A stretch of 64,000 nt of DNA. Source: a virus. The position numbers were made by a program, and so were the translations under genes. This document shows positions 9,931 through 59,479 of the stretch, in pieces (within the stretch, counting starts at the first letter, position 1; each line of letters opens with the position of its first letter). Location of the stretch: UHGV virus genome UHGV-0468246; one strand, given 5' to 3'. A model generated the notes under the pieces. The model worked only from the letters and a program-made list of their open reading frames with translations. It was not told the DNA's origin and did no database searches.

Positions 9931-9960
9931 CAAAAGTTAAAACAAAAAGTTAAGAATACG
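9931..9960 (-). promoter_or_regulatory. AT-rich TCTTAACTTTT direct-repeat island (candidate promoter)
   Basis: Sense cgtattCTTAACTTTTTGTTTTAACTTTTggcttacagccatggTATGAT: TTAACT -35-like box and TATGAT -10-like box before the 9884 gene. It overlaps the primase stop. Confidence 0.35.
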
Positions 9961-10882
9961 CCCATGACGGCACGACTTCCCTTCCGTACACCGCCTCCCA
10001 GCATTCGCGCTTCGTCATCGCCGCCGGGTCGTCCCGCGTCGGAAGGACGGAGAAGACCTTGCAGAACGGCTCCAACATGCGCATGGCACGCAGCGTACCG
10101 GCGTGGCCCGCCTCGTCCGGGTCGTAGAAGACCAGCACGCTGTCGAACTTCTGGCGTATCAGGCGGGCCTGACCGTCGGACAGCTGGCACCCGAACGATG
10201 CCACCGGGTTGGGGAAACCGTACTGATCGAGCATGATTGCCGAAAGCGGTGCCTCCACCAAGATGCAGCTGTCGCCCTGCGAAGCGTTGTCGTATCCGAA
10301 CAGGATGATCTCGCGAGCCATGTCCTTGCTGTGGAGCCACTTCGGGAACACGTCGTTCGTGAGGGCGCGGGCCGTCCACGCGACCAGCTTGCCGCCGAAG
10401 AAGACGGGCACGACGGCCCTGTTCATCGAAGGGTCGTAGCCGAGCCTCCACTTCGCCACCGTCTGGTCGTTGAAGCCGCGCTCGCGCCAGTACGGGCAAT
10501 CGTGCCTAGTCCACTCCTCAACGTCGCGCTCCAACGGCGTGAGCGTCACGGACTTGTATGAGCTTCCCGCCATGAGCTGCTGAATCTCCGAGAACGACAG
10601 GTCGCCGTACAGGAGCCGGAGCGCCTGCGAGCGCGAGCATGAACGCTGCCTCATCACCAAGCCCGCAGCGTCCCCGCTGAAGCCGCAGCTGAAGCAGTGG
10701 TGGCGCAGCGTGTTCAGGTTGATCGACCACGACGGCTTCTTGTCGCCGTGCCGATGGTTCTCCGGGCACGGGCACGATGCCCACAGCTCGTCCCCGCTGA
10801 TATATGAGTTCTTCAGCTCCAAAAGGTCTATCAGCTTAGACGAATGAACCGGTCGCACATCGCACCTCCTCTTATGCCGCAT
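9950..10882 (-). CDS. dnaG: DNA primase (DnaG-like; CHC2 zinc finger plus TOPRIM)
   Basis: CPCPENHRHGDKKPSWSINLNTLRHHCFSCG zinc-binding motif; TOPRIM-like EAPLSAIML...YDPDEAG. Confidence 0.8.
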   Translation of the reverse strand: MRHKRRCDVRPVHSSKLIDLLELKNSYISGDELWASCPCPENHRHGDKKPSWSINLNTLRHHCFSCGFSGDAAGLVMRQRSCSRSQALRLLYGDLSFSEIQQLMAGSSYKSVTLTPLERDVEEWTRHDCPYWRERGFNDQTVAKWRLGYDPSMNRAVVPVFFGGKLVAWTARALTNDVFPKWLHSKDMAREIILFGYDNASQGDSCILVEAPLSAIMLDQYGFPNPVASFGCQLSDGQARLIRQKFDSVLVFYDPDEAGHAGTLRAMRMLEPFCKVFSVLPTRDDPAAMTKRECWEAVYGREVVPSWAYS

Positions 10883-10884
10883 CG

Positions 10885-10900
10885 TCGATTATTTTATCGG
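10885..10900. promoter_or_regulatory. near-palindromic site TCGATTATTTTATCGG, 2 nt upstream of the primase ATG
   Basis: No Shine-Dalgarno; sense TTTACT-17nt-TAAAAT-cgacgATG suggests a promoter that yields a leaderless primase transcript. Confidence 0.35.
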
Positions 10901-10950
10901 ATGTTAAAGAAAAAGTAAAGCAAGAATTAAGACAATAATGAAGATTATCG
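10901..10950 (-). promoter_or_regulatory. AT-rich island with TCTTAA(T/C)T repeats between helicase stop and primase
   Basis: Sense cattattGTCTTAATTCTTGCTTTACTTTTTCTTTAAC; same motif family as 9931, 15876, 18046 and 58095. Confidence 0.35.
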
Positions 10951-13296
10951 GATGGTGCGCGGGTTGCCGTTGTCGTCCCTCATGAGGTCGATGAGGGCTT
11001 GGTACTTCAGCTCCCATCGCAGCTTGTAGCCCATCCTCCCGTAACGTCGGGTCTTCAGCGTGACGAGCTTCATCACGCTTATGTTCTCCTCCTCCTCGGT
11101 GCACCCCAGCGCCCAGATAACGTCCGCAAGCTGCTCGACAACCGACGAGTGCGCGATGTCCTGCGCGGTGCCTATGCCGTCCTTCGCGTTCTTAACGCCC
11201 TCTCGCGTCATCTGGTGGAGCAGCAGCACCGGCATCTTCTGGTTGTCCGAAGGCGACGCTATGAGGTTCTTCAGCGTGTAGATGCAGTCAGCCGTCTGCT
11301 CGTAAAGCGACTGAATCTTCGGGTTCTTCTTCACGAACTGAAGCTGGTCGATCACGACGAAGTTGCATCCGCACATCTTGGCGTTCTGGATGAGGGCGCT
11401 CGGCGTGCGCTCCGGCATGGGAGGCTGGTCGATGACGAGCTTTCCGGGCAGGCCGCCTATCTCGTCGCGCGCCCTGTCGAGGGCCTGAACGTAGCGCGGC
11501 ATCTCGATGCCCTTCAGGAACTTATCGACGGGAACCACGATCTGATCGCGGTTGACGTGCAGAAGCTCCGTGCGCCGCCCGATGTCGTAGGGGTCTAGCT
11601 CCAAGCTGGCGAAGTAGACGTTCCACCCTTGCCGCGCCGCCTCCAAGGCGGTCTTGGCGGCGAACCACGTGTTGTGCGTCACGATGTAATCGTCCGTCAG
11701 GTAAAGATGCTCCGGGTCGTCAACCATGATGCATTGCATCTCCGTGTCGAAGCCCAAGTCCTCGACATCGACTATCGAGACGTAGCGGTGAAGGAACTTG
11801 CGATTCGCAACGGCATCGTGCGCGCGCTCGCGACATTCGTGCTTGCCGGATGACGTGATGCTTTCGGCGGTCATCACCGACACAACCCATTCGTCCGACT
11901 TACCGGCACGGCGTTTCATTCGCGCCCGCGCGCACATTCCCAGCGAGCGGCACAACGACACGACATCATCAGCAAGCCTCTTTGAAGCCGTCGAGTAGGT
12001 CTTGCCTCCGTTGCCCATCATGCACCCGTCCGTGTCCATAAGGCCGCGAAGCAGGTCAAAACGCTGCTCTGCCGATGCTCCAAGGTAGTCGGCTGGAATG
12101 AACTTCTCATAAGATTTCACGTTCAGCCCAAGATCGACGACCGCGCTTGAAAGCGGGTTCATGTTCCACTTCGGCAGGTACGATATTCCATAAGAGCAGT
12201 TATCGGCGTTGACCTTCTTGACAGCGTAGTCTTCGCCCAGTCTCTCGCAAAGACTGTTCACCACATCGTCCTCGACGCTCGAAAACGCAAGCGAGCCTCC
12301 GGGAACCTGTGATAGGCATCCGTCGCCGATGAGCACGCCGAGCACGTAGGGGTCGATTGGAAGCTCCTTGCGCGACATCTCAACGGCATCATTGACCGGC
12401 ACCCTCCAACGATACGCCTTGCCGCTCATCAGGCCACGCGCGATCATCTCGCCGAGCGTCATGGTGCGCTCCGAAACGCAAGGAATGCCGTTCGCCTTCG
12501 TCTTGTACGCCGTCGTCCACAAATGGTCGATGCAGCAATCGGCATGTCGCCCGTCGGCAAGATGCACCCGGTACGCACGCTTTTTGCCCTGCGGGTACAC
12601 TCCTATAACCCGTGCAAGCGTGCCTCGGCGCGTTCGCACCTTGTCGCCTACGCGAATCTCGCCCATCGGCTTGAACCCATGCTCCGTGAGAACCTTCGAG
12701 TAAAGCGGCTGGGCCTTGCCCTTGCCCGTCGGGGCGACGAGAACCGCAAGCTCGCCGGGCTTGATGCCGCCCGTCTCCACGTTCAGCTCCTCGAAGGGGT
12801 ACGGCGCGCCGACCTCGGCCAGCTTCGCGTTCGCCATCTTCTTGTACAGCTCCATGCTCTCGCCGTCGCCGTACACGATCTTCTGCTGCCTCGGCGTTAC
12901 GTTGTCAACGATCACGGACAGGGTGTCGCGCAGCATCTTCACCTTCTGCTCCGCGTCAAGCCCCATGTTCTCAACGCCCATGCGCAGCGCGTCGGTAAGC
13001 TGGAACTCGCAGTACTGGTCTTTGAGCTTCTTCGACAGGTACGACGGCGCGGCACCTGCCGCCCCCTGCGTCAGCGCGTCGTAGTCGGGGAACCGCTCGC
13101 GCAGCACGTCGAGCGTGGGCGCTCCCCTCATGGCCGCGAAGTTCAGGAAGTAGTCGCTGGCGAAGCTGTACATCTCCGCCATCTTCGGGTCGGCGAACTG
13201 CGACGCGTCGATGCCCGACTGGTAGTAGACCATGAGGGCGTTCGGGTCGGTCAAGGTCGCGGCGATCTCCGTCTCTACGTCGAGGGCCATTACCAT
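10945..13296 (-). CDS. dnaB: replicative DnaB-like helicase, interrupted at the P-loop by an intein
   Basis: DnaB N-domain, then Walker A APTGKGK|[intein]|TWFAAK...; extein junction restores GKGKT; downstream RecA-like motor domain. RBS GGGAGGA precedes ATG 13296. Confidence 0.85.
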   Translation of the reverse strand: MVMALDVETEIAATLTDPNALMVYYQSGIDASQFADPKMAEMYSFASDYFLNFAAMRGAPTLDVLRERFPDYDALTQGAAGAAPSYLSKKLKDQYCEFQLTDALRMGVENMGLDAEQKVKMLRDTLSVIVDNVTPRQQKIVYGDGESMELYKKMANAKLAEVGAPYPFEELNVETGGIKPGELAVLVAPTGKGKAQPLYSKVLTEHGFKPMGEIRVGDKVRTRRGTLARVIGVYPQGKKRAYRVHLADGRHADCCIDHLWTTAYKTKANGIPCVSERTMTLGEMIARGLMSGKAYRWRVPVNDAVEMSRKELPIDPYVLGVLIGDGCLSQVPGGSLAFSSVEDDVVNSLCERLGEDYAVKKVNADNCSYGISYLPKWNMNPLSSAVVDLGLNVKSYEKFIPADYLGASAEQRFDLLRGLMDTDGCMMGNGGKTYSTASKRLADDVVSLCRSLGMCARARMKRRAGKSDEWVVSVMTAESITSSGKHECRERAHDAVANRKFLHRYVSIVDVEDLGFDTEMQCIMVDDPEHLYLTDDYIVTHNTWFAAKTALEAARQGWNVYFASLELDPYDIGRRTELLHVNRDQIVVPVDKFLKGIEMPRYVQALDRARDEIGGLPGKLVIDQPPMPERTPSALIQNAKMCGCNFVVIDQLQFVKKNPKIQSLYEQTADCIYTLKNLIASPSDNQKMPVLLLHQMTREGVKNAKDGIGTAQDIAHSSVVEQLADVIWALGCTEEEENISVMKLVTLKTRRYGRMGYKLRWELKYQALIDLMRDDNGNPRTIR
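11671..12714 (-). mobile_element. intein (Ala1 ... THN / Thr+1; class-3-like) with LAGLIDADG homing endonuclease, inside dnaB
   Basis: Starts AQPLYSKVLTEHGFKPMGEI, ends DDYIVTHN|T. Block-B DHLW, block-F Cys (EMQCIMV). LAGLIDADG motifs LGVLIGDGC and LLRGLMDTDGC. Local GC is lower than the flanks. Confidence 0.75.
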
Positions 13297-14114
13297 ATCC
13301 TCCCGCCGCGTCGGCGCTCGCGCGCTTTCTCGCGCATGTCCTCGCCGTCCACGCGCACGAGGTCGAAGCTCTCCGTGAACAACGATAGGACGTACTTGTT
13401 GTAGGCGGTCTCCAACCCCGAAGGGCACGACAGGTTCGTCGTGACGATGGTGGGCCGCGACTGCTGCGTGCGCACGCGCAGAAGGTTCTCGATCTGCCCT
13501 ATGGCGTAGTCGGTGCCCTTCGCGCCGAAGCCTCCCTCTATCTCCTTGCCGAGGTCGTCTAGGACGAGGACGCGGGCAGCGTCTATCTTGCGCTTGTACC
13601 ACTTCGCGTACTTCGCGTTGTTCCACCCCCGCTTCGTGTTCTCGATGTAGTCCTTGGCCGTGGTCATGTAGCACTCGATGCCGCGCCGCACGGCCTCCTT
13701 CAGGGCGAAGGAGGCGAGCATCGTCTTCCCCGTGCCAGCCTTGCCGAACATGACGAACCCGCGCCCTTCGAGCATGTTCACGTCGAGCGCGTCGATGTAT
13801 CCCTTCACGAACGCCTGCGCGTTCCGGTCTCCGAAATAGTCGTTCCAGTTCAAGCGCTGGTAGGTGAGGCCGATGCCCGCGTTCAGGTAGTGCTTGTAAC
13901 GCTGTAGCTGGTCGGCGCAGTTGCACCGCATCAGCGCGCCGTCAACGACCACCGTGCCGTCCACCCCCTCGCCGCAGTTCTTCATGCAGGTGGGGCAGAA
14001 GTACAGGTGGCTCGCTCCGAGGTCGGGGTAAACCTCGTACAGCTCGTCAGCGTCGTCCTGCGACAGCGCCATGTCCACGAGGGCCGAATCTTCGAGCCTC
14101 CCCGTCACATCCAT
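13290..14114 (-). CDS. DnaC/IstB-like helicase loader ATPase
   Basis: Walker A FVMFGKAGTGKT, Walker B LVLDDLG, N-terminal Cys cluster CPTC...CNC. RBS AAGGAGA precedes ATG 14114. Confidence 0.7.
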   Translation of the reverse strand: MDVTGRLEDSALVDMALSQDDADELYEVYPDLGASHLYFCPTCMKNCGEGVDGTVVVDGALMRCNCADQLQRYKHYLNAGIGLTYQRLNWNDYFGDRNAQAFVKGYIDALDVNMLEGRGFVMFGKAGTGKTMLASFALKEAVRRGIECYMTTAKDYIENTKRGWNNAKYAKWYKRKIDAARVLVLDDLGKEIEGGFGAKGTDYAIGQIENLLRVRTQQSRPTIVTTNLSCPSGLETAYNKYVLSLFTESFDLVRVDGEDMREKARERRRGGRIW

Positions 14115-14467
14115 AGGTTCTCCTTGCCCTCGTCCGCCTTCAGCTCCGTCAGCGCAAGATCGGTGAGCCACCGGAATCGCTTCGAGAACATTTCCTTGCC
14201 AACGGGGTTCCCGCGGTTGCGCCCCTTCCACTTCGAGAAGACGAACCGAGTTATCCTCGCCGCGTCCTCCGCGCCGTAGTCGCGGACGAACTGCTGCACG
14301 CTGCGCATCACCGGCGCGGTGAACATGGTGCGCTGCTGCATGGGGTCTACGTTGAAGAACTCGATGTAGCCCTTGCGGAAGATGTCGAACACCTTCCTCG
14401 CGTCGTCGTCCGTCGCGTATATGTTATGCGGTGTACCCGCTATCGCCGCCAAGTCCACTGGCATCAC
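14105..14467 (-). CDS. hypothetical protein (replication module)
   Basis: 120-aa track ORF; stop overlaps the loader start (ATGGATGTGA). Confidence 0.45.
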   Translation of the reverse strand: MMPVDLAAIAGTPHNIYATDDDARKVFDIFRKGYIEFFNVDPMQQRTMFTAPVMRSVQQFVRDYGAEDAARITRFVFSKWKGRNRGNPVGKEMFSKRFRWLTDLALTELKADEGKENLWM

Positions 14468-14915
14468 ACACCTTGCCTATAACGTCTGCGGCCTCCTCCG
14501 GCCCCAGCTCCAACACAACCCCTCCGAAAGGCCCCCACAGGCTCTCTCCGACCTTGAAAACGAAGTCCAGAGGGAAGGCACCGTAAACCGCCTCATGCTC
14601 CTCTAGCAGCGTCCTGTACGGCTCGCCGCCGTCCGTGAGGTCTGCAACGTCGAACGGCGTGTCCCGGTGCACGACCAGCTGCAACGGGCGGTACAGATGG
14701 GCGAGGCCGCGCACGGCCTCGTTGACCATCATCGCGTCGCATAGGAGCTGGTTCACCGAGAAGGCCGCTGCGGCCACGTCGCCCATGGCGAACGGGGTCT
14801 TCCTGCGGTACACCTCGAACACGCTGTTCGCATGCCTCACGCAGGGGACGAACCGGCGGGCGAACGCCGCGCGCTCCAACGCGTCCCCTCCCGTCACGGC
14901 CACGTTGAGAATCAT
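14424..14915 (-). CDS. hypothetical protein
   Basis: 163-aa track ORF; no recognisable motif. Confidence 0.45.
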   Translation of the reverse strand: MILNVAVTGGDALERAAFARRFVPCVRHANSVFEVYRRKTPFAMGDVAAAAFSVNQLLCDAMMVNEAVRGLAHLYRPLQLVVHRDTPFDVADLTDGGEPYRTLLEEHEAVYGAFPLDFVFKVGESLWGPFGGVVLELGPEEAADVIGKVCDASGLGGDSGYTA

Positions 14916-15223
14916 CGCCGCGCCGCCGCCTGCTGCTGCGCGAGCATCGCCTTGTTGGCGATCTTCTGCGCGATGCTGTCTATCTCCTCCTCGCAGATGG
15001 CCTCGCAGTCATGGTTCATCTGGTGCATGACGGCGGCGAGGTATTCCGTTGGCGGGTAGCCGGGGCCGATCTTGGCCGTCAGGGCCGCGCCCTTCTTTAT
15101 CCAGTCGCCGTTGGGGGACTGGATGGAGAAGTTCACGCTTATCTCCGCCTCGACATGGTACACGCCGAGCTGCGCCGTGGTCTGCGGCTGGCCCTGCTGC
15201 GGCGCGGTCTGCTGCCCCTCCAT
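14912..15223 (-). CDS. hypothetical protein
   Basis: 103-aa track ORF with Q-rich N-terminus; stop/start overlap with the downstream gene. Confidence 0.45.
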   Translation of the reverse strand: MEGQQTAPQQGQPQTTAQLGVYHVEAEISVNFSIQSPNGDWIKKGAALTAKIGPGYPPTEYLAAVMHQMNHDCEAICEEEIDSIAQKIANKAMLAQQQAAARR

Positions 15224-15224
15224 G

Positions 15225-15812
15225 CTACTTCACCACCAGAGACGATGCGATCTTGCCTTGCGCGGCGGCCTTCTCGTCGGCCTTGGAGAACTGGCGCAGC
15301 ATGGTCTTGAAGGTGGCGGGGACGCTCACGGAGACCTCCGGGTCGTCGAACAGCTCCTTCGGCACCTTCAGGTTCTGGCCGAGCATCGCCTGCTCCAACT
15401 TCGCCTCGTCGATCTCGCGGGGCATCGAGACGGGGCGCGTGACCGACTTGAAAGCGTCCCAAGCCCTGCCGCTGCGGTCGTTGATGTCCTCTTCGTAGAG
15501 GCGGCACAGACCGGCGAGAAGCCCCTGCTCGGTGATGTCAACGGCCTCCTTGCGCGCGAACTCGCGGCACACCTTCTTCTGCTCCTCCATGCCGTACACG
15601 GACACGGGGGTTCCGTTGTCGGTGTACTCCTCCGTGAGGCGCGCCGCCTCTTCCTTCATGGCCTCGTATTCGAGTTCGGCGATCTCCGCCGCCTTCTTCT
15701 TCTCGGCGTACAGCTTCACGAAGGCGTTTGCCTTCGCCGGGTCTGACAGGTCTTTGGGCTGGTAGTCTTGGATTGCGAGGACTTCCTTGCCGACCTTGAT
15801 GATCTCTGCCAT
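15225..15812 (-). CDS. hypothetical protein (predicted coiled-coil)
   Basis: Internal ATG at 15812 preceded by AAAGGAGATGGAACG; product MAEIIKVGKEV... Confidence 0.5.
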   Translation of the reverse strand: MAEIIKVGKEVLAIQDYQPKDLSDPAKANAFVKLYAEKKKAAEIAELEYEAMKEEAARLTEEYTDNGTPVSVYGMEEQKKVCREFARKEAVDITEQGLLAGLCRLYEEDINDRSGRAWDAFKSVTRPVSMPREIDEAKLEQAMLGQNLKVPKELFDDPEVSVSVPATFKTMLRQFSKADEKAAAQGKIASSLVVK

Positions 15813-15875
15813 CGTTCCATCTCCTTTTGTTGGTTGCAATGACAAGTCATATGTTAAACGGTCTCGCGACCGTTG

Positions 15876-15910
15876 TAAAGATAAAAGTTAAGAATAAAAG
15901 TTAAGACTTA
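15876..15910 (-). promoter_or_regulatory. AT-rich TCTTAACTTTT direct-repeat island followed by a small hairpin
   Basis: Sense taaGTCTTAACTTTTATTCTTAACTTTTatctttac, then aacggtcgcgagaccgtt (7-bp stem), ~55 nt upstream of ATG 15812. Confidence 0.35.
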
Positions 15911-16249
15911 CTGCACGACATCCCATGTCTCGCCGCCGTCTGCGGACTGCGTGATGAAGGTGCTCGGCGGGAAGTTCGCGACGGCGTAGTCAACCATCGC
16001 CTTCAGCTTGGACGGGTCTCGGTCGAATATCTCGAAGCCGATCTGCGGGGCGCTCCCCGACTGCGCCATCACGGCCAGAAGCTCCAAGCCGGTGCAGGTG
16101 ATGCAGTCCCACGAGAAGGCCAGCCAGCCGATGCCGTGGTTAAGCTCTACGGCGCGGGGGTCGTCCGTCCACACGTAGTTCGTCCTCATGTTCTCCGGCG
16201 TGCGCGCCAGCCACACGTTGATGCGCGCCGCTACGAATCTGCGTCCCAT
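15908..16249 (-). CDS. hypothetical protein
   Basis: 113-aa track ORF. Confidence 0.45.
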   Translation of the reverse strand: MGRRFVAARINVWLARTPENMRTNYVWTDDPRAVELNHGIGWLAFSWDCITCTGLELLAVMAQSGSAPQIGFEIFDRDPSKLKAMVDYAVANFPPSTFITQSADGGETWDVVQ

Positions 16250-16258
16250 TCCCGCTCC

Positions 16259-18019
16259 TTAAAAGCCGAGTAAGTATTCCATGTCGTTCATCATATCATT
16301 CTCGCCAGCCGCTTCATACTCGCCTATGCCCATCTCCTGCGCCAGCGCCTTGCGGCCCGCCATGGTCTCCTCTATGCGCTCCTCGATTGTGTCGCGCGTC
16401 ACGAAGCGGTATATGGTCACGCAGTCGTGCTTGGAGCTGATGCGGTGGATGCGGTCGCTGCGCTGCTGGTAGCGCGAATGCAGCGGCGGCGTGTCGTAGT
16501 GGAGCAGGTAGCGCCCCTCCGGAAGGTCTATGCCCTCGCGCCCAGCGTCGGACATGAGCATGAGGTTGTAGGTGCTCCCCTCTCGGAAAGACCGCTCGAT
16601 CACGCCGCGCTGCGCGTCCGTCTGCCCTCCCATGTACATGAGCGGGCGGTAGCGCTCCAAGTGCTTCGACAGCGGTATGAGGCAGTTGTGCGTGTGCTGG
16701 GCGAACACCACCATCTTCTCGCCGCCTCCCATGATCTGGTCTACCAGCTCCTCGGTCGCCTTCAGCTTCTCGCTGTTCTTAGACCCCGCAAGCTCCGGCG
16801 CGTGGCGCTGCACTATCCGGCGAATCTCGCGCAGCTGCTCGTCCCAGAACGGGTTGTCGCCTTCGTAGCGCCACACGTCCTCCATCAGAAGAACCTCCGG
16901 CATCCTGCACACGCGCTGAAGCATGAGCATGAACAGCGAGCGCTGCTTCTCGTCCCGGTCTACGCTGCCGCCGTACGCGGCGATCTCGTCGTACAGGGCG
17001 CGCTCCGGCGGCGACAGCTCCAAGTCAAGCACGATCTCCTGACGCTTGGGGAACTCCGCCGCTATCTCCGGGTTGGTCTTCTCCGCCATGAACACGCGGG
17101 GAGCCGAAAGCAGCCCCATAACGTCGAGGTTCTGGAAGCCGAGGTAGCGGTTCCACATGTCGCGCTCGCCGTTGCCGTACGTGAAGTAGTGCTCGAAGTC
17201 CTTCACGGTGCCGTAGATCGAGGCATCGAGGATGCGCCATTCGTTGTAGTAGTCCTCCGGGCTTTTCTCCAACGGCGTGGCGGTCAGGCCGCACTTGAAC
17301 CTGATGTCGAGCGTCTTTTCCAGCTTCTTGAACTTCTGGTGGCGGGGCCGCGCTCGGCTCTTCAACCGCTGAACCTCGTCGTACACGAAGAAAAGGTGCT
17401 TCCCGCGCAGGGCGCGCTCTATGAAGTTCCAGTCCTTCGTGTTGGTTCGGTCGTAGTTGACGACCCATATGTCGGAATCGTCGGTGTTGTACCACGCTTG
17501 GCGCTTCGCGGGCTTCGCGTTGCGGTTGACCGTGCCGACCGTCAGGCTCGTCGCCTTCTCCAACCACGGCACCCACTGCTTGACGAGCGGGGCCGGGCAG
17601 AACACCACGATCTTATCGACGGTGCCACGGTCGAACTCGCGCACGGCGAGCATCGTCCCCATGGCCGTCTTCCCCGTCCCGCACGAGCATATGAGCATGG
17701 TGTTGGGAACTCCGTCGAGCGCGTGGCCGCATCTGTTCTGAAACCTCTTCAGCTCGAACGGGAGCGTGAGGGACGGAGATTCGATGGGCGATTCGTCGCG
17801 CACCTGCCGCAAGCGCTCCGCCGCCCGCTCCGTGAACATGACCTCCATCGTCCTCGCCATGGTCTGGCACAGCTCGACGATGCGGTCGGAGTTCTTCAGC
17901 AGATGGTCGCGGGCGAGTATCCCGCTGTGGACGAACGGCATCAGCGCCGCCTCGTCGCCGTTGATCTTGAACTGCCCTCGGAACTCCTCGGACAGGTCAA
18001 CGCAGACCGTCTCTTTCAA
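16259..18019 (-). CDS. SNF2/Rad54-family helicase
   Basis: Helicase motifs I (CSCGTGKTAMG), II (VYDEVQ), III (TATPLEKS), VI (QQRSDRIHRIS); TTG start after an AAGGGAGATGGAGG RBS. Confidence 0.8.
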   Translation of the reverse strand: MKETVCVDLSEEFRGQFKINGDEAALMPFVHSGILARDHLLKNSDRIVELCQTMARTMEVMFTERAAERLRQVRDESPIESPSLTLPFELKRFQNRCGHALDGVPNTMLICSCGTGKTAMGTMLAVREFDRGTVDKIVVFCPAPLVKQWVPWLEKATSLTVGTVNRNAKPAKRQAWYNTDDSDIWVVNYDRTNTKDWNFIERALRGKHLFFVYDEVQRLKSRARPRHQKFKKLEKTLDIRFKCGLTATPLEKSPEDYYNEWRILDASIYGTVKDFEHYFTYGNGERDMWNRYLGFQNLDVMGLLSAPRVFMAEKTNPEIAAEFPKRQEIVLDLELSPPERALYDEIAAYGGSVDRDEKQRSLFMLMLQRVCRMPEVLLMEDVWRYEGDNPFWDEQLREIRRIVQRHAPELAGSKNSEKLKATEELVDQIMGGGEKMVVFAQHTHNCLIPLSKHLERYRPLMYMGGQTDAQRGVIERSFREGSTYNLMLMSDAGREGIDLPEGRYLLHYDTPPLHSRYQQRSDRIHRISSKHDCVTIYRFVTRDTIEERIEETMAGRKALAQEMGIGEYEAAGENDMMNDMEYLLGF

Positions 18020-18045
18020 CGCGCCTCCATCTCCCTTGGTTTTCC

Positions 18046-18084
18046 TCTAGTGTAAGACAAGAAGTTAAGAAAATCAAGTAAAAG
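18046..18084 (-). promoter_or_regulatory. AT-rich TTCTTAACTT island between terminator and SNF2 gene (candidate promoter)
   Basis: Sense TTGATTttcttaacttcttgtctTACACT: -35-like and -10-like boxes with 17-nt spacing, immediately after the 18070-18115 terminator. Confidence 0.4.
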
Positions 18085-18115
18085 AAGAACCCCCTCGGAT
18101 TGCCGTAGGGGGTTC
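18070..18115 (-). terminator. rho-independent terminator ending the structural-gene operon
   Basis: GC-rich hairpin gaaccccctacggcaatccgagggggttc followed by a T-rich run on the sense strand. Confidence 0.6.
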
Positions 18116-18168
18116 TCGGCGCTCATTCAAGCAAGGAGATGGAATCACGCCTCGCTCATTATACCTCA

Positions 18169-20055
18169 TCAGAAGAAGGAATACATGTAGTTTATCGTGT
18201 GCGTCGTGCTTCCCCCGACCGCGCTCTTGTACGTCACGACTATCTCGCCGTGCGAAAGGTCGATGGATGCCGGGAATGTCAGCGCTATGTCCTTCCCGAC
18301 CGTGGCCGTTATGCCCGTCTGGGCCGTCTCGGAGCCGGGGTAGAAGCCGTTCACCTTGACCGACGATATGAAGGCCGTCGGCAGGACGGAGGGGTCGTAG
18401 CTCGCCTCCCCTTCGTATATGACGTACGCGCTGACGTGTATGGTGCGCGCCTGCACGCCGATCATGTTGAGCTGGTCGGTGACGCGCAGCCCGTCGGGGC
18501 CGACGTAGTACACGTCCGCGTAGCTGGCGATGGCGTTGAACCTCGCGGTCTTCGCCGCCACTCCGGGGAAGGTGATTCCGAGCGTGTTGTTCGAGGTCGT
18601 CGCCGTCCCCTTCCAATGCACGAGGTAGTCGTTCCCCGCCACCGTCTCGAAGTCGGTGAGCGTCTTGGAGAACGTCGGCTTGTAGGCGCTCATGTACTTG
18701 TCGTGGACGCTCTTCACGTCCCCCGTTGACAGGCTCAAATGCGGGTTCAGCAGCACGTAGGAAGACGTGCTCCATATCGCCGCGCCGAAGCTGGCGCTCG
18801 GAAGGTAGAACTCGGCTCCGTCCATACTGCCCTGCGCGTCAGAATAGTAGAAGTAGCCGGGGTCGAACGCCGTGATGGCGGCCAGAGAGCTTGTTATGGC
18901 GAGCGTCGCCGTGCTCTGGTTCACCTTGACCGTGAGCGTCGCCGTGCCAGCGGCCACGTAATCGACGGAGCAGGTCTTGCCGACGGTCATGCGGAACGCC
19001 GTCGTGTTGCTTATCGTCCACGTCGCCGCCGACGAGCCGTTGCGCGTGTCGTACCGGATGTCGCCGATGACGTAGGTCGCGTAGAACTCGTTCGTATAGC
19101 TCACGTAGTCCGTCGCGCCGAGACGGTTGATCTTCAGCTCCTTTATGTGGGGGTCGAGCGCAACGCCGGAGCTGTCGATGGCGGAGACCGTGTACGTCTT
19201 GGAAGGGTCGTAGTTCTCCAACTGGTAGGAGGTGAGGCGCGTCTTGCCCACCAGCTCGTCGTCCGCGTAGATGTAGTAGACGAACACGCCGTTGCCGCCC
19301 TTCGCCTCCGTCCACGTCGCATAGCCGACAATCGACACGGCGAAGTCGCTCTCGCCGTCTGCGGTGTTCCACGTGAGCGCGTCAGGCGTTCCGAGCTGGT
19401 AGTCGGGCTGCGGTATGAGGGCGAACGCCTGAAGCCATTCCTCCGGGTTGTTGCTCATGACGCGCGCCTTCAGCGTGTTCGTCGGGCGCGGGAGCGTCAT
19501 CCGGGAGTAGGCCTTGTTCGGAAGGTCGTACCACTGGTACCACTTGTTGCCGCCGTCCGGGCTGAACTCCCACAGGAGGTTCGAGTAGAGGAACATCGAG
19601 TTGTCGAACCACGCGGTTCCCGCGCCGGTCGTGTACAGATCGAACGAGAGGCCCACGCTCTCCGTGGTGTCGTCGTTCTTGCCCCAGCTGCGCCCCTTCT
19701 CCATCTCCTGCGGGTAGTAGCCGAACGTCTGGCGCGTATGGTACTCCGGGCCTTCGCCCTGCGGGCCGATCTCGTCGAGGACGGCGAACATGTTAGCGCC
19801 CGTCGTCGCGCGCGGGTCGGTGGGCGGCTCGAACGTGGGTGTCCACGCCGACTTGGTGCGGGCGAAGAAGCGGGCGGCCTCGTCCACCGTCTTGCGCTCG
19901 CCGATGCCGGTCTCCACCGACGGGTCGAACACGTTGTAGGAGTATTCGCCGAGCCGCCTCTGCCCGTAGCGCACCATGCGCACGAAGCCCTTGGCGGGCT
20001 TCCCGTCCTCGAAGCAGTTTCCTATCCTCATCGTAGGGTTCACAGCGTCCTCCAT
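18169..20055 (-). CDS. tail fibre / receptor-binding-like structural protein
   Basis: ~630 aa, beta-rich and Ser/Thr/Gly-rich; last gene of the late operon before the terminator. Start uncertain (20055 or 20028). Confidence 0.45.
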   Translation of the reverse strand: MEDAVNPTMRIGNCFEDGKPAKGFVRMVRYGQRRLGEYSYNVFDPSVETGIGERKTVDEAARFFARTKSAWTPTFEPPTDPRATTGANMFAVLDEIGPQGEGPEYHTRQTFGYYPQEMEKGRSWGKNDDTTESVGLSFDLYTTGAGTAWFDNSMFLYSNLLWEFSPDGGNKWYQWYDLPNKAYSRMTLPRPTNTLKARVMSNNPEEWLQAFALIPQPDYQLGTPDALTWNTADGESDFAVSIVGYATWTEAKGGNGVFVYYIYADDELVGKTRLTSYQLENYDPSKTYTVSAIDSSGVALDPHIKELKINRLGATDYVSYTNEFYATYVIGDIRYDTRNGSSAATWTISNTTAFRMTVGKTCSVDYVAAGTATLTVKVNQSTATLAITSSLAAITAFDPGYFYYSDAQGSMDGAEFYLPSASFGAAIWSTSSYVLLNPHLSLSTGDVKSVHDKYMSAYKPTFSKTLTDFETVAGNDYLVHWKGTATTSNNTLGITFPGVAAKTARFNAIASYADVYYVGPDGLRVTDQLNMIGVQARTIHVSAYVIYEGEASYDPSVLPTAFISSVKVNGFYPGSETAQTGITATVGKDIALTFPASIDLSHGEIVVTYKSAVGGSTTHTINYMYSFF

Positions 20056-33437: not shown

Positions 33438-33453
33438 TCGATTATTTAATCGA
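33438..33453. promoter_or_regulatory. near-palindromic site TCGATTATTTAATCGA overlapping the C39 gene stop codon
   Basis: Lies ~40 nt upstream of the lysin C ATG. Confidence 0.45.
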
Positions 33454-52318: not shown

Positions 52319-52334
52319 TCGATTAAATAATCGA
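52319..52334. promoter_or_regulatory. near-palindromic site TCGATTAAATAATCGA in the post-capsid intergenic region
   Basis: Lies next to a G9-CACGG element (52353-52361) and ~85 nt upstream of ATG 52236. Confidence 0.45.
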
Positions 52335-53415: not shown

Positions 53416-53439
53416 TTCTCTGCACCTTCCCTTCTTGTC

Positions 53440-53949: not shown

Positions 53950-53972
53950 AGTAACCACTCCTTTCTTTCGTC

Positions 53973-54920: not shown

Positions 54921-55009
54921 GTAACGCTCCTTTCGTGAAACTAGTGTCTCCTGAACGTGCACGCATGGTGCACGGCTCCATTTTGACACATACAGAAAAT
55001 CGCGCAACA

Positions 55010-55040
55010 TAGAAAGCGCCCCTCCGAAGAGGGGCGCTGC
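55010..55040 (-). terminator. candidate rho-independent terminator
   Basis: Sense hairpin agcgcccctcttcggaggggcgct followed by a T-rich stretch, between the 55101 gene and the scaffold gene. Confidence 0.4.
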
Positions 55041-55100
55041 CGGTCTACCACTGGCCGTTCGGCTTATCAGGCTCGTTTCAACCCACGTCCTCACGGGCGA

Positions 55101-55349: not shown

Positions 55350-55361
55350 CGCAAGACCTCC

Positions 55362-57764
55362 CTATGCACCCAATGCCGCATTGGAGCCGGTGCGCCTGCC
55401 GACCTCCTCGGTTACGGCGCTCTTCGCGCCCTCCAACGTGTCCTCGTCGCCCTCGGCCATCTTCTCGCCGGACGCGCCGCCGCTCGTCATGTCGATCAGC
55501 TCCCAGTGGTACTTTCCGGGCGTGGAGTAGTCGTAATCGACCTCCATCTCGTACGGGTGCTCGAACTTGGCCCACACGCCGTCCTCCTCTTCCCAGCCGT
55601 CGTCGGCGGTCTTCGCGGAGGCCGTGCGGCCCAGAGCGTCGTCGATGGCGGCCTGCGCGCTCGGGAAGTAGCCTTGGCGCGGATAGCCCTTCACGCCCAC
55701 GTCTTCGGTGACCCAGTACCAGTTGTAGGTTCCGTCCGCCTCGACTTCGGCGTTCACGATCTTGCCGTCGCCCGTGAAGCGCCACGGACTGCCGAGAGCG
55801 CCGCCGCCCATGGTCTCGAACTTCGTCCAGCCGTCGGGCGCGGGCGTTGAGCGCCCGGTGTCGTGCCCGTCGCTCGCCGCCGTCTTGGCGGGGAGGCGCT
55901 GGGCGTTCTGCGCCAGCCACTCGTCCGCGAGCTTCGCGCAGTACTCCATGGCAGGCTCGATCATGCAGAAGCCGTCCTCCGGGTTGTCGTACTTCGCCAG
56001 CAGCTGGTCGTACGGCATGCTCTCGACCTCGGCGTAGGGCAGGCCGTCGATTGAGACGGTCTTGACGCGGGCGATCTCCAAGCTCGGCTCGTACGCGCCG
56101 TCCAGCGTTCCGTCGTAATAGGCGTAGCAGCCCTTCGCGTCGTAGTAGAGGTTTCCGGGAAGGTTCGTCCAGCCAGCCCACGACACGTTGACGGTGGAGC
56201 CATCGCTTCCGACGTACTTGTACCAGTAGTCTTCGCCCGCATGCTCCCATCCTCCCATCTGCGCGGCCTTTTCAGCCGTGGTGACGCGCACGGTCTTGGG
56301 AGGCGCTGCGGAAACGACCTCGTTGTACGTCATCTTCTCGAACCGCTCCGCCTGACGCAGGGCGTAGTCCATGTTCGGCATCATGCCGAACTCGTGCACC
56401 TGCCCCTTGTCGGAGATGACGGTGAGCTGCGGCTTGGAACCGATCTGCTGTTGGACGACACCGATGGTAGCCCTCTTGTCCTTCGTCTGGCCTTCGTAGA
56501 AGGCGTAGAACGGCAGCTCCTCGTCATGGTAGCTCACCTCCGGGGCGAGGCCGCCGCTGGCCGTCTTGCGGGAGCCGACGGAAGACCTGACGGAAACGTC
56601 GATGTCCTTCCCGTCGTTGTACTCCCTATCGAAGGAGACCGTGTATTCGTCCCAAATGGAAAAGTCGTCGAAAGGCGTTTCCTTGCCGGAGACCATCTGG
56701 GATATTTTGCGCGTCATCTCGCCGTCAAGCTCAACGTCGCTCCGCATGTGCACGTTGATGCCGTCAAACACCTGCCCGTAATTGAACTCGGACGACACCT
56801 TCCTCGATGCCGTGCGGCGCGCGGAGCGCTTGCGCCCTGCGGAGCGAACGGCCCTGTTCTCGGCGCTCTTCTTCTCCATGTCGTCGTCCTTTCCCTCGGT
56901 CTCCCGCTCGACCTCTCCGATGCCTTCGTTGAACTCGTCCTCCTCGGACGGGTCGAGGTCGATGAGCAGCTTGTGAAGCTCTCCGGCGTGCTCCTTCTCC
57001 TCGTCGCGTATGTCCTCCAAGCCCTTGCGCACGGGGTCGCCCTCGGGCAGGAGGTCGATGTAGGCGCTGTACATCAGGATAGCGTCGTTCTCCGCCTTCA
57101 TGTTGTCGCGGATGGCGCGCTTCTTCAGCTCCTCCTCCGAAAGCTCCTTGGGGTCAACCGGCATCTGCTGCGCGGTCTTCCCCTCCTTCCATTCGCCCTC
57201 GATGCCGTCGGCTTCGAGCTTCGCCACGACGGCATCGTACAGCTCGCCGCCGAGCGCGTCTTGGACGATCTGCCAGTAGCGGTTGTCGTGCTCCTCCATG
57301 GCGGTGCCGTGGTCGTATCCGGCCAAGTCCCCCGCCACGAGCCAGTCAACGACGGCCTGAACCGTGCGGTCGTCCGGCATGGACGCGCTCTTGGGCATCC
57401 TGCCGCTCCCTGAGACCTCCTGAAGCTCCTCGCCGTACTCTGGGAGGGTTATGGTCGTATCGCCCGTCAGATCGGCTCCTGCGGCCTCGGAGGCGGCGTT
57501 GCGCCCCATGCACAGGGGCAGCTTGCCGCTGCCCTCGATCAGCTTGCAGAACTCGCGGGCCTCGTCCTCGTCAGCGCACACCTTGAAGCGCGCGGCCTCG
57601 TTCGGCCTGTCCTTCTCGAAGACACCCGCCCAAACCGTGTCGCCGGTCTTGTCGATGGAGTAGTTGAACGCCTCGCCGCACGATGTCAGCACGCGGGGCA
57701 TCTCCTCCTTCCACCGCAGGGCGGTCTTCGTGCCCTGCTCGATTATTTTATCGGGTGTGCCCAT
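55362..57764 (-). CDS. large virion-module protein (portal candidate?) with a rubrerythrin/ferritin-like E-x-x-H helix pair
   Basis: 800 aa; the segment ENDAILMYSAYIDLL…LEDIRDEEKEHAGELHKLL resembles a diiron-site motif. The palindromic motif lies within codons 3-8 (PDKIIE). Confidence 0.4.
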   Translation of the reverse strand: MGTPDKIIEQGTKTALRWKEEMPRVLTSCGEAFNYSIDKTGDTVWAGVFEKDRPNEAARFKVCADEDEAREFCKLIEGSGKLPLCMGRNAASEAAGADLTGDTTITLPEYGEELQEVSGSGRMPKSASMPDDRTVQAVVDWLVAGDLAGYDHGTAMEEHDNRYWQIVQDALGGELYDAVVAKLEADGIEGEWKEGKTAQQMPVDPKELSEEELKKRAIRDNMKAENDAILMYSAYIDLLPEGDPVRKGLEDIRDEEKEHAGELHKLLIDLDPSEEDEFNEGIGEVERETEGKDDDMEKKSAENRAVRSAGRKRSARRTASRKVSSEFNYGQVFDGINVHMRSDVELDGEMTRKISQMVSGKETPFDDFSIWDEYTVSFDREYNDGKDIDVSVRSSVGSRKTASGGLAPEVSYHDEELPFYAFYEGQTKDKRATIGVVQQQIGSKPQLTVISDKGQVHEFGMMPNMDYALRQAERFEKMTYNEVVSAAPPKTVRVTTAEKAAQMGGWEHAGEDYWYKYVGSDGSTVNVSWAGWTNLPGNLYYDAKGCYAYYDGTLDGAYEPSLEIARVKTVSIDGLPYAEVESMPYDQLLAKYDNPEDGFCMIEPAMEYCAKLADEWLAQNAQRLPAKTAASDGHDTGRSTPAPDGWTKFETMGGGALGSPWRFTGDGKIVNAEVEADGTYNWYWVTEDVGVKGYPRQGYFPSAQAAIDDALGRTASAKTADDGWEEEDGVWAKFEHPYEMEVDYDYSTPGKYHWELIDMTSGGASGEKMAEGDEDTLEGAKSAVTEEVGRRTGSNAALGA

Positions 57765-57821
57765 CGCACTTTTCCTTCCAACGTCCGAGGGAGGGCGCTC
57801 GCCCTCCCTTTGATTTCCGAT

Positions 57822-59479
57822 CTAGCGCACATGCTCCCATTCGGGGTCGTAGGCGAACGGGATGTCGTACCACACGTCGCCGTCGATCTCGTCTACGAAC
57901 GTGGTGACTTGGTTCTTGTACTCATAGCCGTCGATCAGCGTCTCCGTCTCCGGGGTCTTGCGCAGGTACAGGTCGGAGTTCCAGTGGTCGATATCGCTGT
58001 CCGGGATGTTCACGGTCTGCTCGTACAGGCTCTGGGCCTTCTTCACGCTCGCGGTCATGGCTGCGGCCTTCCTCTTGGGGTTCTTCCTGCCGCCCATCTT
58101 ACCACAAGTCTTAACTTTTGTCTTAACTTTTCCCTCAACTTTTTCTTTTACACTTTCGGCGGCCTTGATGTTCCTCTCGGCCAGCGCCACCAGCATGCGG
58201 TCGTGGATGTCGCACGCGAGCTTCGAGCGCGATGCCACGCGGAAGGCGAAGCCGTTTTCGATGGTGTACCCGTCGTTGATAACGATGTCGCGGCCGAAGC
58301 CCTCGTAGTCGAAGTACATCTCCTTCTCGTCGTCGCTGATGCCGTCGAAGCCAAGCTCATCGACGATGCGGTACCCCAAGTCGCGCTCGTCGTACACGTC
58401 GCTCCAATAGTCAACGTCGTCGATGTGCTCGGCGACGTATTCAAGGCTTTCGTAGTCGAGCAGCGCGTCGAGCAGATCGTCGTCGAGGTCTGCGTCCTCT
58501 ATGGCCTCCACCCACTCGTTCACGCTGTATATGTCGTCGTACTCGCCGACGCTGCTGCCAAGCCCGTCGGTGTCGGCGATCATTACCTCTTCGTAGAACT
58601 CGCCGTCGGGGCCGGTCTGCGCGCGCTCTATCGCCTCGTCTATCTCGCTGTCGCTCGCGGGGAGGGACAGCCAGTCGCCGTTGGTCGGGTTGGACACAGC
58701 GCCTATGAAGATCGCAACGTCGCCGCCGAACGCGACCTTGCGCGCCGCCCAAGCCTTGTAGCGCGCCTCCTTGGTCTTCAGGCGCGGCTTGCGGTTGCCA
58801 ACGTGCTTGGCGGACTTCACGGCCTCCGCCTTGTACTCCGCGTAGGCCTTCTTCTCCGTCAGCTTCGCGCAAGCGATCAGGCCGACGGTGCAGCCCATGC
58901 CAGCGAGGTGGTGGCGCACGTCGTCGTCGATCTTGCGGGCCATATGGCGCTCGGCCATGCGGGATGCCACCCATTCCGCCTTGGCGATCTCCCCTGCGGG
59001 CACGCCGTCGGGGTCTCCGTCCATGAGGTCGTCAGCCGCGTCGGTAAGCTCGTCGATGTCCTGCGCGACCCTGAACGCGGCGCTCTCCTTCTCGTGCGCC
59101 TTCAGGTGCTCTTCCAAAGCGTCGTCGGCATCGTTCTTGGCATCCTCGATGCTGTCGGAATGCCCGCTGTCCACGGTGCGGTCGTCGGTGTCCAGCACGT
59201 CCCAGCGGTAGCGCTTCTCGCCGCCGTCGTCCCACTTGACGGTCGCCTGATAGCCGCCGTCGTGCTTGCGCCACGTGGTGTCCTTCTCGTCCGGGTTCCC
59301 CTCGTTGTCTGCCTTCCATTCAGCGGCCATCTTGCGGCCTCCTTCCATGCGCTTCAGGCGCTTCAGCTCGTCTCGCTGGTGGTCTGTCTCGTCGTAGTCG
59401 TAAGGCAGCGCGAAGTCCGTCACGCAGTCGCCGTCGCCCTCGCGAGCCTTGCGGCTCATACCCTTAACAAGCTCCATCT
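57822..59479 (-). CDS. highly acidic protein (scaffold/internal protein or DNA-mimic candidate) containing an in-frame AT-rich insertion
   Basis: Start MELVKGMSRK with RBS AAGGAGAGAAAG; ~550 aa, strongly D/E-rich. The AT-rich island (58095-58150) is translated as K/V-rich ESVKEKVEGKVKTKVKT with atypical codon usage. Confidence 0.45.
58095..58150 (+). promoter_or_regulatory. AT-rich TCTTAACTTTT direct repeats (x2-3) in inverted orientation relative to the other copies, lying inside an ORF
   Basis: Plus strand caagTCTTAACTTTTGTCTTAACTTTTCCCTCAACTTTTTCTTTTACACT; may be an antisense promoter or a protein-binding site. Confidence 0.3.

Follow-up and report, generated by a model that had tools for sequence, protein, structure and literature searches.

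The question raised by this locus is what short AT-rich islands of direct repeats do in an otherwise GC-rich phage DNA, and why one of them lies inverted within an open reading frame. The DNA analysed (the window, a 64,000-nucleotide stretch of the virus genome UHGV-0468246) has a base composition of 63% GC, carries its genes on the minus strand and has the Eggerthella phage LE2-3 as a close relative. Eggerthella is a gut actinobacterium that metabolises drugs and for which few genetic tools exist. Promoters of its phages have not been described so far, and no transcription or transcription start data were found for LE2-3 in the literature; KL11, an Eggerthella phage described recently, is another phage, of 44 kb. 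The analysis reported below indicates that the islands are likely to be ordinary promoter cassettes for early and replication genes of an LE2-3-like phage, at which host RNA polymerase with its primary sigma factor would start transcription in the gene direction, the 58.1-kb copy being a forward-firing one that is read through by an anti-restriction (ArdA) gene.

The original prediction listed five AT-rich islands with two to three direct repeats each. Matches to the unit TCTTAACTTTT with up to one mismatch were found eight times in the window, compared with 0.09 expected, and matches with up to two mismatches 12 times (2.9 expected), all 12 inside AT-rich islands, which confirms that the islands are real. 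The unit family was recovered independently by a repeat finder in a 13-bp register (family D14); its consensus is TCTTAAyTTyT and its period 12-13 bp, or about 1.2 helical turns. Ten stretches of at least 30 bp with 30% GC or less occur in the window and six of them are the islands considered here, that is, all five of the original list and a sixth, at 482-531 on the minus strand, which that list had missed. The quality of the copies varies. The islands at 9931-9960, 15876-15910 and 58095-58150 have two good copies each, 12-13 bp apart, 10901-10950 has two-mismatch copies only (TCTTAATTCTT and GCTTTACTTTT), and 18046-18084 a single one-mismatch copy accompanied by degenerate ones. The core TCTTAAC occurs unaltered in arrays of either orientation. 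In LE2-3, 14 arrays were catalogued, or about 15-19 with further degenerate islands, and they lie scattered through its early, tRNA and replication regions.

Comparisons were made with the syntenic relatives L014-L017 (SNF2 identity 54-85%, GC 40-61%) and by wider searches. When viral contigs were scanned by exact pattern for two units side by side, five loci came up, only one belonging to a relative (L009, at the ArdA island) and the other four being unrelated and of different composition. The corresponding scan of genome contigs gave chance matches in AT-rich genomes, with Eggerthellaceae absent among the matches listed. A search of viral contigs based on SNF2 returned no match, and no Rfam family matched anywhere in the window.

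Each island can be resolved into a candidate promoter on the minus strand. In the sixth island (472..531), units TCTTAACTGTT (526-516) and TCTTAATTTCT (514-504) and a terminal TTTTACA accompany a promoter called by the promoter scan, with -35 TTTACA at 500-495 and -10 TATGCT at 477-472 preceded by TGG; the downstream ORF starts at 426, and the LE2-3 counterpart of the island lies at 108019-108062. The forward array that follows the primase gene (9911..9967, units at 9955-9945 and 9942-9932) has -35 TTAACT at 9940-9935, an 18-nt spacer, TGG and -10 TATGAT at 9916-9911, ahead of the RBS AAGGAGA and an ATG at 9884 that opens a gene of 54 aa in LE2-3. At this position an array is present in L016 and absent in L015. 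The putative promoter of the primase gene itself is also of the forward type (10886..10956), with degenerate units at 10932-10922 and 10921-10911, -35 TTTACT (10919-10914), a 17-nt spacer and -10 TAAAAT (10896-10891), the latter within a palindrome-like CGATAAAATAATCG (10899-10886). The RBS AGGAGG and a GTG start near 10858 come next, and L015 has kept both boxes as well as the palindrome.

In the forward array at 15851..15918, two perfect units (15906-15896 and 15893-15883) are followed by a third, TCTTTACA, which provides -35 TTTACA at 15879-15874, and the 17-nt spacer leading to -10 TAACAT (15856-15851) contains the 16-bp palindrome ACGGTCGCGAGACCGT. The combination TTTAC(A/T)-17-TAACAT is invariant at this site in L014, L015 and L016, and spacer and leader diverge. 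Ahead of the SNF2 gene (18042..18117), a hairpin at 18117-18085 that folds at -23.5 kcal/mol (z = -3.95) is followed by its U-rich tail, then by -35 TTGATT (18077-18072), a 17-nt spacer and -10 TACACT (18054-18049), the RBS GGGAGATGG and a TTG start at 18019, which bears out the terminator-then-promoter arrangement proposed for this gene. The spacer contains the unit TCTTAACTTCT (18070-18060) and another unit forms the -10. L014 and L015 keep the -35 TTG, 17 nt and the -10 TACA(C/A)T; TACACT is also found in L016, and L017 has a different -10, TATCTT. Spacers and leaders are scrambled at this site and the RBS is kept except in L017, with the spacer unit being conserved across L014, L015 and L017; L016 and L017 retain the combination of boxes and unit in part. 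Unit conservation at the SNF2 promoter exceeds what polymerase contacts alone account for.

Taken together, all six window islands have a sigma-70-like -35/-10 pair (TAnnnT) with the boxes 16-18 nt apart on the gene strand. The sense-strand boxes of the first four (TTAACT-18-TATGAT, TTTACT-17-TAAAAT, TTTACA-17-TAACAT and TTGATT-17-TACACT) agree with their original designation as promoter candidates, and in relatives of 40-61% GC the hexamers are conserved at orthologous sites with diverged spacers and leaders. When scored against a general bacterial consensus, assumed to be alike for Eggerthella sigma-A, 12 of the 14 LE2-3 arrays reached clearly higher sigma-70-like values (8.5-11) on the strand of the genes than on the other (6-8), and the six window islands showed the same preference; only 1.4% of random 125-nt genome windows scored at least 9.5. 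An independent consensus scan of window positions 1-20000 placed four of its five hits on islands. In LE2-3, 11 of the 23 strongest gene-strand predictions fell on islands (ten by automatic flagging, the eleventh being the primase promoter, whose units are degenerate), compared with none of six on the opposite strand. The arrays are placed past stop codons or terminators, about 12-45 nt ahead of an RBS and start codon, and where relatives have gained or lost an array at an orthologous position, the promoter has come or gone with it. Against the promoter reading stands that the register of the units relative to the -35 and -10 boxes varies between promoters. Pfam searches of 76 early or unknown LE2-3 proteins and ten unknown window proteins revealed neither a sigma factor nor an RNA polymerase nor a clear regulator.

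The 58.1-kb copy had been described as inverted and translated in frame with foreign codon usage, and this description proved accurate: the island is translated as SVKEKVEGKVKTKVKTCGKM, with a GC3 of 0.25 compared to 0.87 in the rest of the ORF. Its inverted array (58096..58157, minus strand) consists of TGTAAAAG, then degenerate and perfect inverted units, and presents -35 AAGACA at 58124-58119, a 17-nt spacer, TGTGG at 58106-58102 and -10 TAAGAT at 58101-58096, with a predicted minus-strand start site near 58089. This combination scored 10.0 on the gene strand against 6.5 for the best antisense one. Against it, AAGACA has only four of the six consensus positions, and the standard scan gave no call there. 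An identical architecture was found in the four inverted arrays of LE2-3 (at 1650, 9482, 50820 and 111409), which all read AAGACA-17/18-TGTGG-TAA(G/C)AT on the gene strand; three of the four are intergenic, and one LE2-3 inverted array lies between tRNA-Cys and tRNA-Arg.

The promoter DNA of this copy is unchanged in all four of the relatives L138, L139, L140 and L143. L143 has a TGA ahead of the -35 box, L140 a frameshift and a stop within a unit, and L139 a stop five codons past the -10 box; L138 retains the cassette and the ATG with a different downstream module, and in a distant low-GC relative the ArdA gene ends exactly at the beginning of the island. At identical residues in the island core the same codon is used at 10/10 and 11/11 sites, compared with 147/290 and 176/254 (51-69%) in the flanks, and the RBS and ATG stand at a fixed 37 nt past the -10 box in relatives. 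Since the promoter DNA and the synonymous codons are unchanged while the ArdA stop or the downstream module varies, the island is most likely a promoter cassette captured in frame, and it lies within an ORF only because in this lineage the upstream ArdA gene lacks a stop. The proposal of an in-frame insertion stands insofar as an intergenic-type promoter, RBS and ATG cassette is now in frame, but not as a recent event, as relatives with about 64-76% ArdA identity carry the cassette.

The maximal ORF concerned (57822..59555, minus strand, 577 codons) has its likely start, MELVKG, at 59477. An ArdA anti-restriction domain occupies aa 292-437 (PF07275, 80.8 bits for a cut-off of 27), and a PHROG anti-restriction family is matched with E = 1.7e-12. 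The ORF continues through the promoter island and is thereby joined in frame to a small gene of 78 codons on the same strand, with the RBS GAGGAAGG at 58074-58067, an ATG at 58058-58056 and a stop at 57822, whose product begins MTASVKKAQSLYEQT. The C-terminal 78 aa have 41 free-standing homologues of 67-125 aa, nearly all of 67-95 aa and with proteins of 67-82 aa, or about 70 aa, among them, and the Met of these aligns at or near the 58058-58056 ATG; in L140 the small frame is called as a separate 62-aa gene. The predicted structure of the 78-aa protein reached a pLDDT of 80, with no significant match in a PDB fold search and nothing in PHROGs. Relatives include both fused and unfused ArdA variants and, because they carry a stop before, inside or after the cassette, the ArdA fusion is dispensable. 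The neighbour of the ArdA ORF is an LPD11-domain gene, and the locus lies among head genes.

Other explanations were weighed against the promoter reading. If the units were operators for a sequence-specific DNA-binding protein, phage-encoded or delivered by the virion, the repeats would serve a regulator and not RNA polymerase, and about 15-19 real promoters would be switched on and off together. This is a possible but doubtful account. The TCTTAAC core is preserved whichever way the array points, a hint of a specific binding factor, and also in upstream copies needing no sigma contact; the conservation of the SNF2 spacer unit in three relatives points the same way. The units moreover persist in relatives of 40-61% GC and are absent from more distant ones of 58-64% GC that have promoters at the same places, and the motif therefore follows the phage lineage and not base composition. 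Common descent of duplicated promoter cassettes could, however, also preserve the core, the variable register and the 12-13-bp period misfit the usual activator geometry, and no DNA-binding regulator was detected (E <= 0.001) in the 76 LE2-3 proteins, bar one marginal MarR_2 hit. Replication-origin iterons, or tails of terminators and 3' UTRs, are very improbable. Short direct repeats in AT-rich DNA would suit either, three arrays flank helicase, loader and primase genes, and one array follows a terminator, but the 15-19 or so arrays are each tied to a -10 box and RBS, are gained and lost with the promoter, and are dispersed in LE2-3, unlike an iteron-type origin with one or a few clusters by an initiator gene and an AT-rich unwinding region alongside. 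As for tails, a hairpin stands upstream of only one of the six window arrays, the 18.05-kb one.

Concerning the 58.1-kb island, the antisense promoter of the original prediction, a plus-strand one firing into the ArdA gene, can hardly be maintained. The orientation of the units on that strand does equal the one in forward-array promoters, but the best plus-strand pair has the lower score given above, no usable -10 (TAnnnT) lies at the right distance past the terminal TTTTACA, and the array varies at its plus-strand end when the window is compared with LE2-3, in contrast to the invariant minus-strand -10 end. Read that way, each of the three inverted arrays that lie between genes in LE2-3 would direct transcription into the 3' end of an upstream gene or a tRNA. 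It is also improbable, if less so, that the island is a mere K/V-rich interdomain linker of a multi-domain anti-restriction protein, with the promoter likeness as a relic devoid of any present role. Several lineages do keep the frame open across the island, among them one whose C-terminal module is another, the indels that separate the window from LE2-3 have lengths divisible by three, two 1-nt indels in the leader apparently compensate each other, and polyvalent fusion proteins put together from solo domains include phage ArdA domains (PMC5512222). Against a linker, the island DNA is conserved where it is untranslated or out of that frame (L143, L140 and L139), synonymous sites are frozen with AT-ending codons kept in an ORF of high GC3, and the distance from the -10 to the RBS and ATG is fixed.

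In the reading of the islands as promoter cassettes, their sequence layout, conservation, position in the genome and natural variants have been shown, and from these we infer a start of transcription at the islands, the polymerase used and the timing. The host primary-sigma RNA polymerase would read the cassettes in the gene direction (the minus strand of the window), each cassette being composed of two to four tandem units of 12-13 bp. In the common forward form, the last unit would have mutated towards TCTTTACA or TCTTTACT and provide the -35, with a TAnnnT -10 box 17-18 nt further on, often with TG before it, and the earlier units would lie at about -40 to -65. The inverted form is rarer; here the same array is turned round, and the inverted units would supply both the -35 (GTTAAGACA) and the -10 (TGTGG-TAAGAT), 24 bp apart, and the promoter would therefore still fire in the gene direction. 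The 58.1-kb promoter would then drive the 78-codon gene and probably also the large LPD11/ferritin-like gene behind it, and the ArdA gene, without a stop, would read the cassette as an open frame (KVKTKVKTCGKM). The upstream units may offer UP-like or extra polymerase contacts or be sites for a specific factor; it could be either. A more elaborate scheme, which must be called unlikely, would make the TCTTAAC units an orientation-independent array for a phage factor coordinating the 15-19 or so promoters and the cassette a recombination joint for swapping downstream anti-defence modules. At ArdA it would act as both promoter and translated K/V linker, with transcription from upstream yielding the fused protein and the internal promoter the free downstream one.

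The cassettes make up a set of candidate promoters that can be tested, with start sites already predicted and with natural variants in strength. The 58.1-kb locus is a clear case in which gene calling conceals a probable promoter and a small gene within one long ORF. The anti-restriction gene and its neighbour are fused or unfused there by single mutations at a promoter cassette, which bears on the assembly of multi-domain anti-defence proteins.

Several known systems resemble the arrays in part. LytTR (AgrA-type) sites consist of two 9-bp repeats (such as ACAGTTAAG) set 12-13 bp apart, for a period of about 21-22 bp, and go with a LytTR protein. The core AGTTAAG is common to both, but the period here is 12-13 bp and the proteins scanned with Pfam contained no LytTR domain. 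The stoperators of cluster A mycobacteriophages are dispersed 13-bp asymmetric repressor sites, single and in one orientation, in temperate phages with a known repressor. An actinobacterial phage, an asymmetric site of about 13 bp and many copies in short intergenic regions are shared features; the present sites, in contrast, stand in tandem, point either way and coincide with promoters, and neither an integrase nor a repressor was found here, one marginal MarR_2 hit aside. UP elements are contact sites for the C-terminal domain of the alpha subunit at about -40 to -60, and the extra units of most forward arrays, AT-rich with T or A tracts and at about -40 to -65, would fit in position. They differ in having a specific core with conserved C positions (TCTTAAC) in place of the UP consensus and, at the SNF2 promoter, in lying also within the spacer and at the -10, one array thus being inside the core promoter.

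The early promoters of T4 and those of T5 and T7 (A promoters) depend on host sigma-70 and are conserved beyond the hexamers. The cassettes share with such lytic-phage promoters boxes 17-18 nt apart, a frequent TG extension, AT-rich upstream DNA and many near-identical copies in early and replication regions, all in the gene direction. They differ in the tandem array of a defined 12-13-bp unit, also flipped into a second form, and their recognition by host polymerase is putative. In-frame nested genes whose shorter product shares the C-terminus are known in T7 (4A/4B), phiX174 (A/A*) and lambda (C/Nu3). The long ArdA ORF likewise contains the in-frame start of a shorter product with a shared C-terminus, but here the internal signal is a full intergenic-type cassette of promoter, RBS and ATG, and the fusion is dispensable. 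Polyvalent anti-defence proteins of phages and conjugative elements (PMC5512222) unite several conflict-related domains that also have solo versions elsewhere, and are delivered with the DNA. Compared with them, only two or three modules are joined here, ArdA is the sole recognised domain and the joint is a promoter cassette, a type of joint not described in the accessible part of that paper. What is common to both is an ArdA domain joined to modules that also exist solo, with an LPD11 gene adjoining.

The repeat unit TCTTAACTTTT was found eight times in the window with at most one mismatch (0.09 expected) and 12 times with at most two (2.9 expected), all 12 copies falling within six AT-rich islands. 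The five AT-rich repeat islands of the original prediction were thus all recovered by motif enrichment, together with a sixth at 482-531 which had been overlooked, and the unit family was independently found by a repeat finder (D14) in a 13-bp register. Apart from these islands, the AT-rich stretches of the window are two gene 3' ends and two islands within a low-GC segment (GC 0.505; about 61.9-62.3 kb). The latter two are unrelated to the motif and belong to a 1037-aa ORF (60390-63503, minus strand, especially 61.9-63.0 kb) annotated as a 'tRNA synthetase' in the Eggerthella phage LE2-3, with weak, below-cut-off matches to Hint/intein domains.

LE2-3 (MW679026.1, 111,961 bp, host E. lenta DSM 2243) is 99.9% identical to the window over a 7-kb stretch and 92.8% identical, with indels, over 56.5-60.5 kb. 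The window (GC about 63%), whose genes lie almost all on the minus strand corresponding to the LE2-3 plus strand, covers the head, tail and replication modules, the early small-gene region of LE2-3 being mostly outside it. Tandem paralogous tail or tail-fibre-like genes account for several diverged direct-repeat families (60-186 nt, 61-86% identity) at 32.8-41.2 kb. The whole LE2-3 genome holds 22 AT-rich islands, and its unit clusters were catalogued as ten forward and four inverted arrays, to which the primase array and some degenerate islands have to be added. These arrays occupy the early and tRNA regions and the replication module; the 56-kb head and tail region has a single array, located within the ArdA gene. 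The unit has the consensus T-C-T-T-A-A-(C/T)-T-(T/C)-(T/C)-T with a period of 12 or 13 bp, and 13 of the 15 TCTTAAC occurrences in LE2-3 are inside arrays.

In forward arrays the final unit drifts to TCTTTACT, TCTTTACA or TTTTACA, and 17-18 nt beyond TTTAC(A/T) stands a TAnnnT hexamer (TAGAAT, TAACAT, TAAAAT, TATGAT, TATGCT, TAGGAT or TAGACT), often preceded by TG. All four inverted arrays of LE2-3 display, on the gene strand, GTTAAGACA followed after 17-18 nt by TGTGG-TAAGAT or TGTGG-TAACAT. Three of the four are intergenic: one behind a terminator about 30 nt upstream of the LE23_5 RBS and start, one behind a terminator between tRNA-Cys and tRNA-Arg, and one about 35 nt upstream of LE23_140. 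The promoter score counted agreement with TTGACA and TATAAT, a consensus that may not be that of the host, and rewarded TG and a 17-nt spacer. Gene-strand scores of 8.5-11 versus 6-8 on the opposite strand were obtained for 12 of the 14 LE2-3 arrays, and the six window islands scored 8.5-11 on the minus strand versus 6.5-8 on the plus strand; a score of 9.5 or more is found in just 1.4% of random windows. A separate consensus scan of window positions 1-20000 returned five sites, four of them repeat islands. Among the best LE2-3 predictions, 11 of 23 on the gene strand fall on islands (ten flagged automatically, plus the primase promoter), versus none of six on the opposite strand. The terminator proposed ahead of the 18.05-kb island was also borne out, as a hairpin of -23.5 kcal/mol (z = -3.95) with a U-rich tail. 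The gene-strand scores and the boxes conserved in relatives support the islands as promoter candidates, which probably fire in the direction of the genes.

SNF2 homologues led to four syntenic loci, L014-L017 (85, 80, 63 and 54% protein identity; GC 61, 52, 40 and 45%). Ahead of the gene that follows a 113-aa ORF, TTTAC(A/T)-17-TAACAT and the RBS AAGGAGATGG are kept in all three relatives covering the site (L014-L016), where the 17-nt spacer and the leader are without sequence relatedness and one or two TCTTAA-type units remain upstream. For the SNF2 promoter, a -35 TTG and a -10 TACA(C/A)T are conserved in L014 and L015; in L016 TACACT is accompanied by a weak -35 and in L017 the -10 reads TATCTT, and the unit TCTTAACTTTT in the spacer is retained in L014, L015 and L017. 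The primase promoter is present in L015 and missing in L016, the post-primase promoter the reverse, so that gain and loss affect whole cassettes. Two more distant loci, L141 and L142 (42-45% identity, 58-64% GC), have AT-rich promoters at the same places without TCTTAAC units; as units are kept elsewhere across the GC range, the unit is a trait of the LE2-3 clade and not an effect of base composition. The orthologous promoter of L141 (12084-12155) carries a different long palindrome, ATTACGATATAA-T-AG-TTATATCGTAAT, over a TATAAT box; operator-like elements seem to be particular to each lineage. In the 15.9-kb promoter the spacer is taken up by a perfect 16-bp palindrome, ACGGTCGCGAGACCGT (15858-15873, minus strand), which is not conserved in L014-L016.

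Forward units clearly supply -35-like boxes, and inverted units both -35-like and -10-like boxes: with a period of 12 bp, a run of three inverted units brings AAGACA and TAAGAT to a distance of 17 nt. Units further upstream, at about -40 to -65, could act as UP-like elements or extra polymerase contacts. Less probably, the units are instead sites for a specific binding factor, as suggested by the conserved core in both orientations, the conserved unit in the SNF2 spacer and the restriction of the motif to one clade. Among 76 early or unknown LE2-3 proteins no sigma factor, polymerase or clear regulator domain was found, and the single marginal MarR_2 match (E = 0.001) lies outside the ten unknown window proteins.

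Translated in frame as SVKEKVEGKVKTKVKTCGKM, the 58.1-kb island has the inverted orientation. The foreign codon usage ascribed to it held when codons were checked (GC3 0.25 versus 0.87 in the rest of the ORF), and an antisense promoter was rejected, the score being 10.0 on the minus strand versus 6.5 on the plus strand. On the minus strand, TGTAAAAG, GAAAAAGTTGAGG, GAAAAGTTAAGAC, AAAAGTTAAGAC, TTGTGG and TAAGAT are followed by a 37-nt leader with GAGGAAGG 8 nt upstream of an ATG at 58058. For the 78 codons that run from this ATG to a stop at 57822, 41 matching proteins were found, nearly all of them free-standing (67-95 aa), with a first Met that aligns with the ATG or a few residues beyond; the ArdA domain (aa 292-437) lies further upstream in the ORF. 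A distant low-GC relative has its ArdA stop codon exactly at the island start, and a large ferritin-like gene comes next.

The cassette was present in the four relatives compared, with the same promoter DNA. In L143 the ArdA frame ends at a TGA two codons ahead of the first perfect unit (GTT GAG TGA versus GGA in the window), which leaves the promoter fully intergenic, ahead of an LPD11 gene; in L140 an extra A in an A-run creates a stop inside a unit and the small gene is called separately; in L139 the stop lies five codons after the -10 box, and the cassette is directly followed by the large gene. L138 (53% GC) is fused in frame, with a -10 TAATAT and the same 37-nt leader, RBS and ATG before an unrelated 98-aa module. 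Among identical residues, core codons are identical at 10/10 (L138) and 11/11 (L139) positions versus 147/290 and 176/254 in the flanks; the conserved entity is therefore the DNA cassette and not the peptide. The proposed in-frame insertion is refined to read-through of a promoter cassette, which lies inside the ORF because the ArdA frame, where the units read K-V-K-T, happens to be open through it. The fusion of ArdA with the small gene may itself be useful: several lineages preserve the open frame, window and LE2-3 differ here by indels in multiples of three, the leader by our own reading seems to differ by two compensating 1-nt indels, and ArdA domains are known from phage polyvalent proteins assembled from solo domains (PMC5512222). 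The three unfused variants speak against it. A few genes past this locus, L139 encodes an AcrIC5 (anti-CRISPR) Pfam match (14600-14833), suggesting an anti-defence island between the cement and capsid genes.

Other elements were observed beside the promoters. The near-palindrome (T)CGAT(A/T)AAATAATCGA(G) occurs six times in the window (7690-7703, 10886-10899, 29350-29363, 33439-33452, 52320-52333 and 57740-57753; 0.07 expected) and 15 times in LE2-3, and is conserved in L015, L139 and L143. Copies overlapping a -10 box or following closely on predicted promoters or terminators occur beside copies within ORFs, which encode D-K-I-I-E; the motif has the look of an operator for a dimeric regulator. 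A conserved CCATCTCCTT element (about 18125-18140, minus strand), placed after the stop of a 625-aa tail-region gene and before the terminator, resembles the 16S rRNA 3' end and is complementary to the SNF2 RBS AAGGAGATGG. This complementarity shows co-variation in L016 (TCATCTCCTTGC with GCAAGGAGATGA), and on read-through transcripts the element might mask this RBS. Directly after a strong terminator hairpin in the head-gene region, TTTCTATGTTGCG (window about 55005-55040, minus strand; L138 14540-14687; L139 14834-14959; L012 about 6090-6110) is conserved among relatives of 63% to 40% GC without TCTTAAC units, and could be a late promoter or a processing signal. Short intergenic gaps of the tail module (window about 28934 and 33417, LE2-3 79616 and 75133; also LE2-3 15471) contain TG-n-TAGAAT extended -10 boxes that lack both a good -35 and arrays; these boxes may form a separate promoter class.

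Iterons, terminator tails, stoperators and LytTR sites were each rejected, a defining feature failing for each class. A search of the available literature found no description of a tandem unit used in both orientations or of a promoter cassette translated in frame, and the defined unit in both orientations and the cassette translated at a gene junction appear to be new. The cassettes carry the sequence features of host-dependent phage promoters and would work like members of that class.
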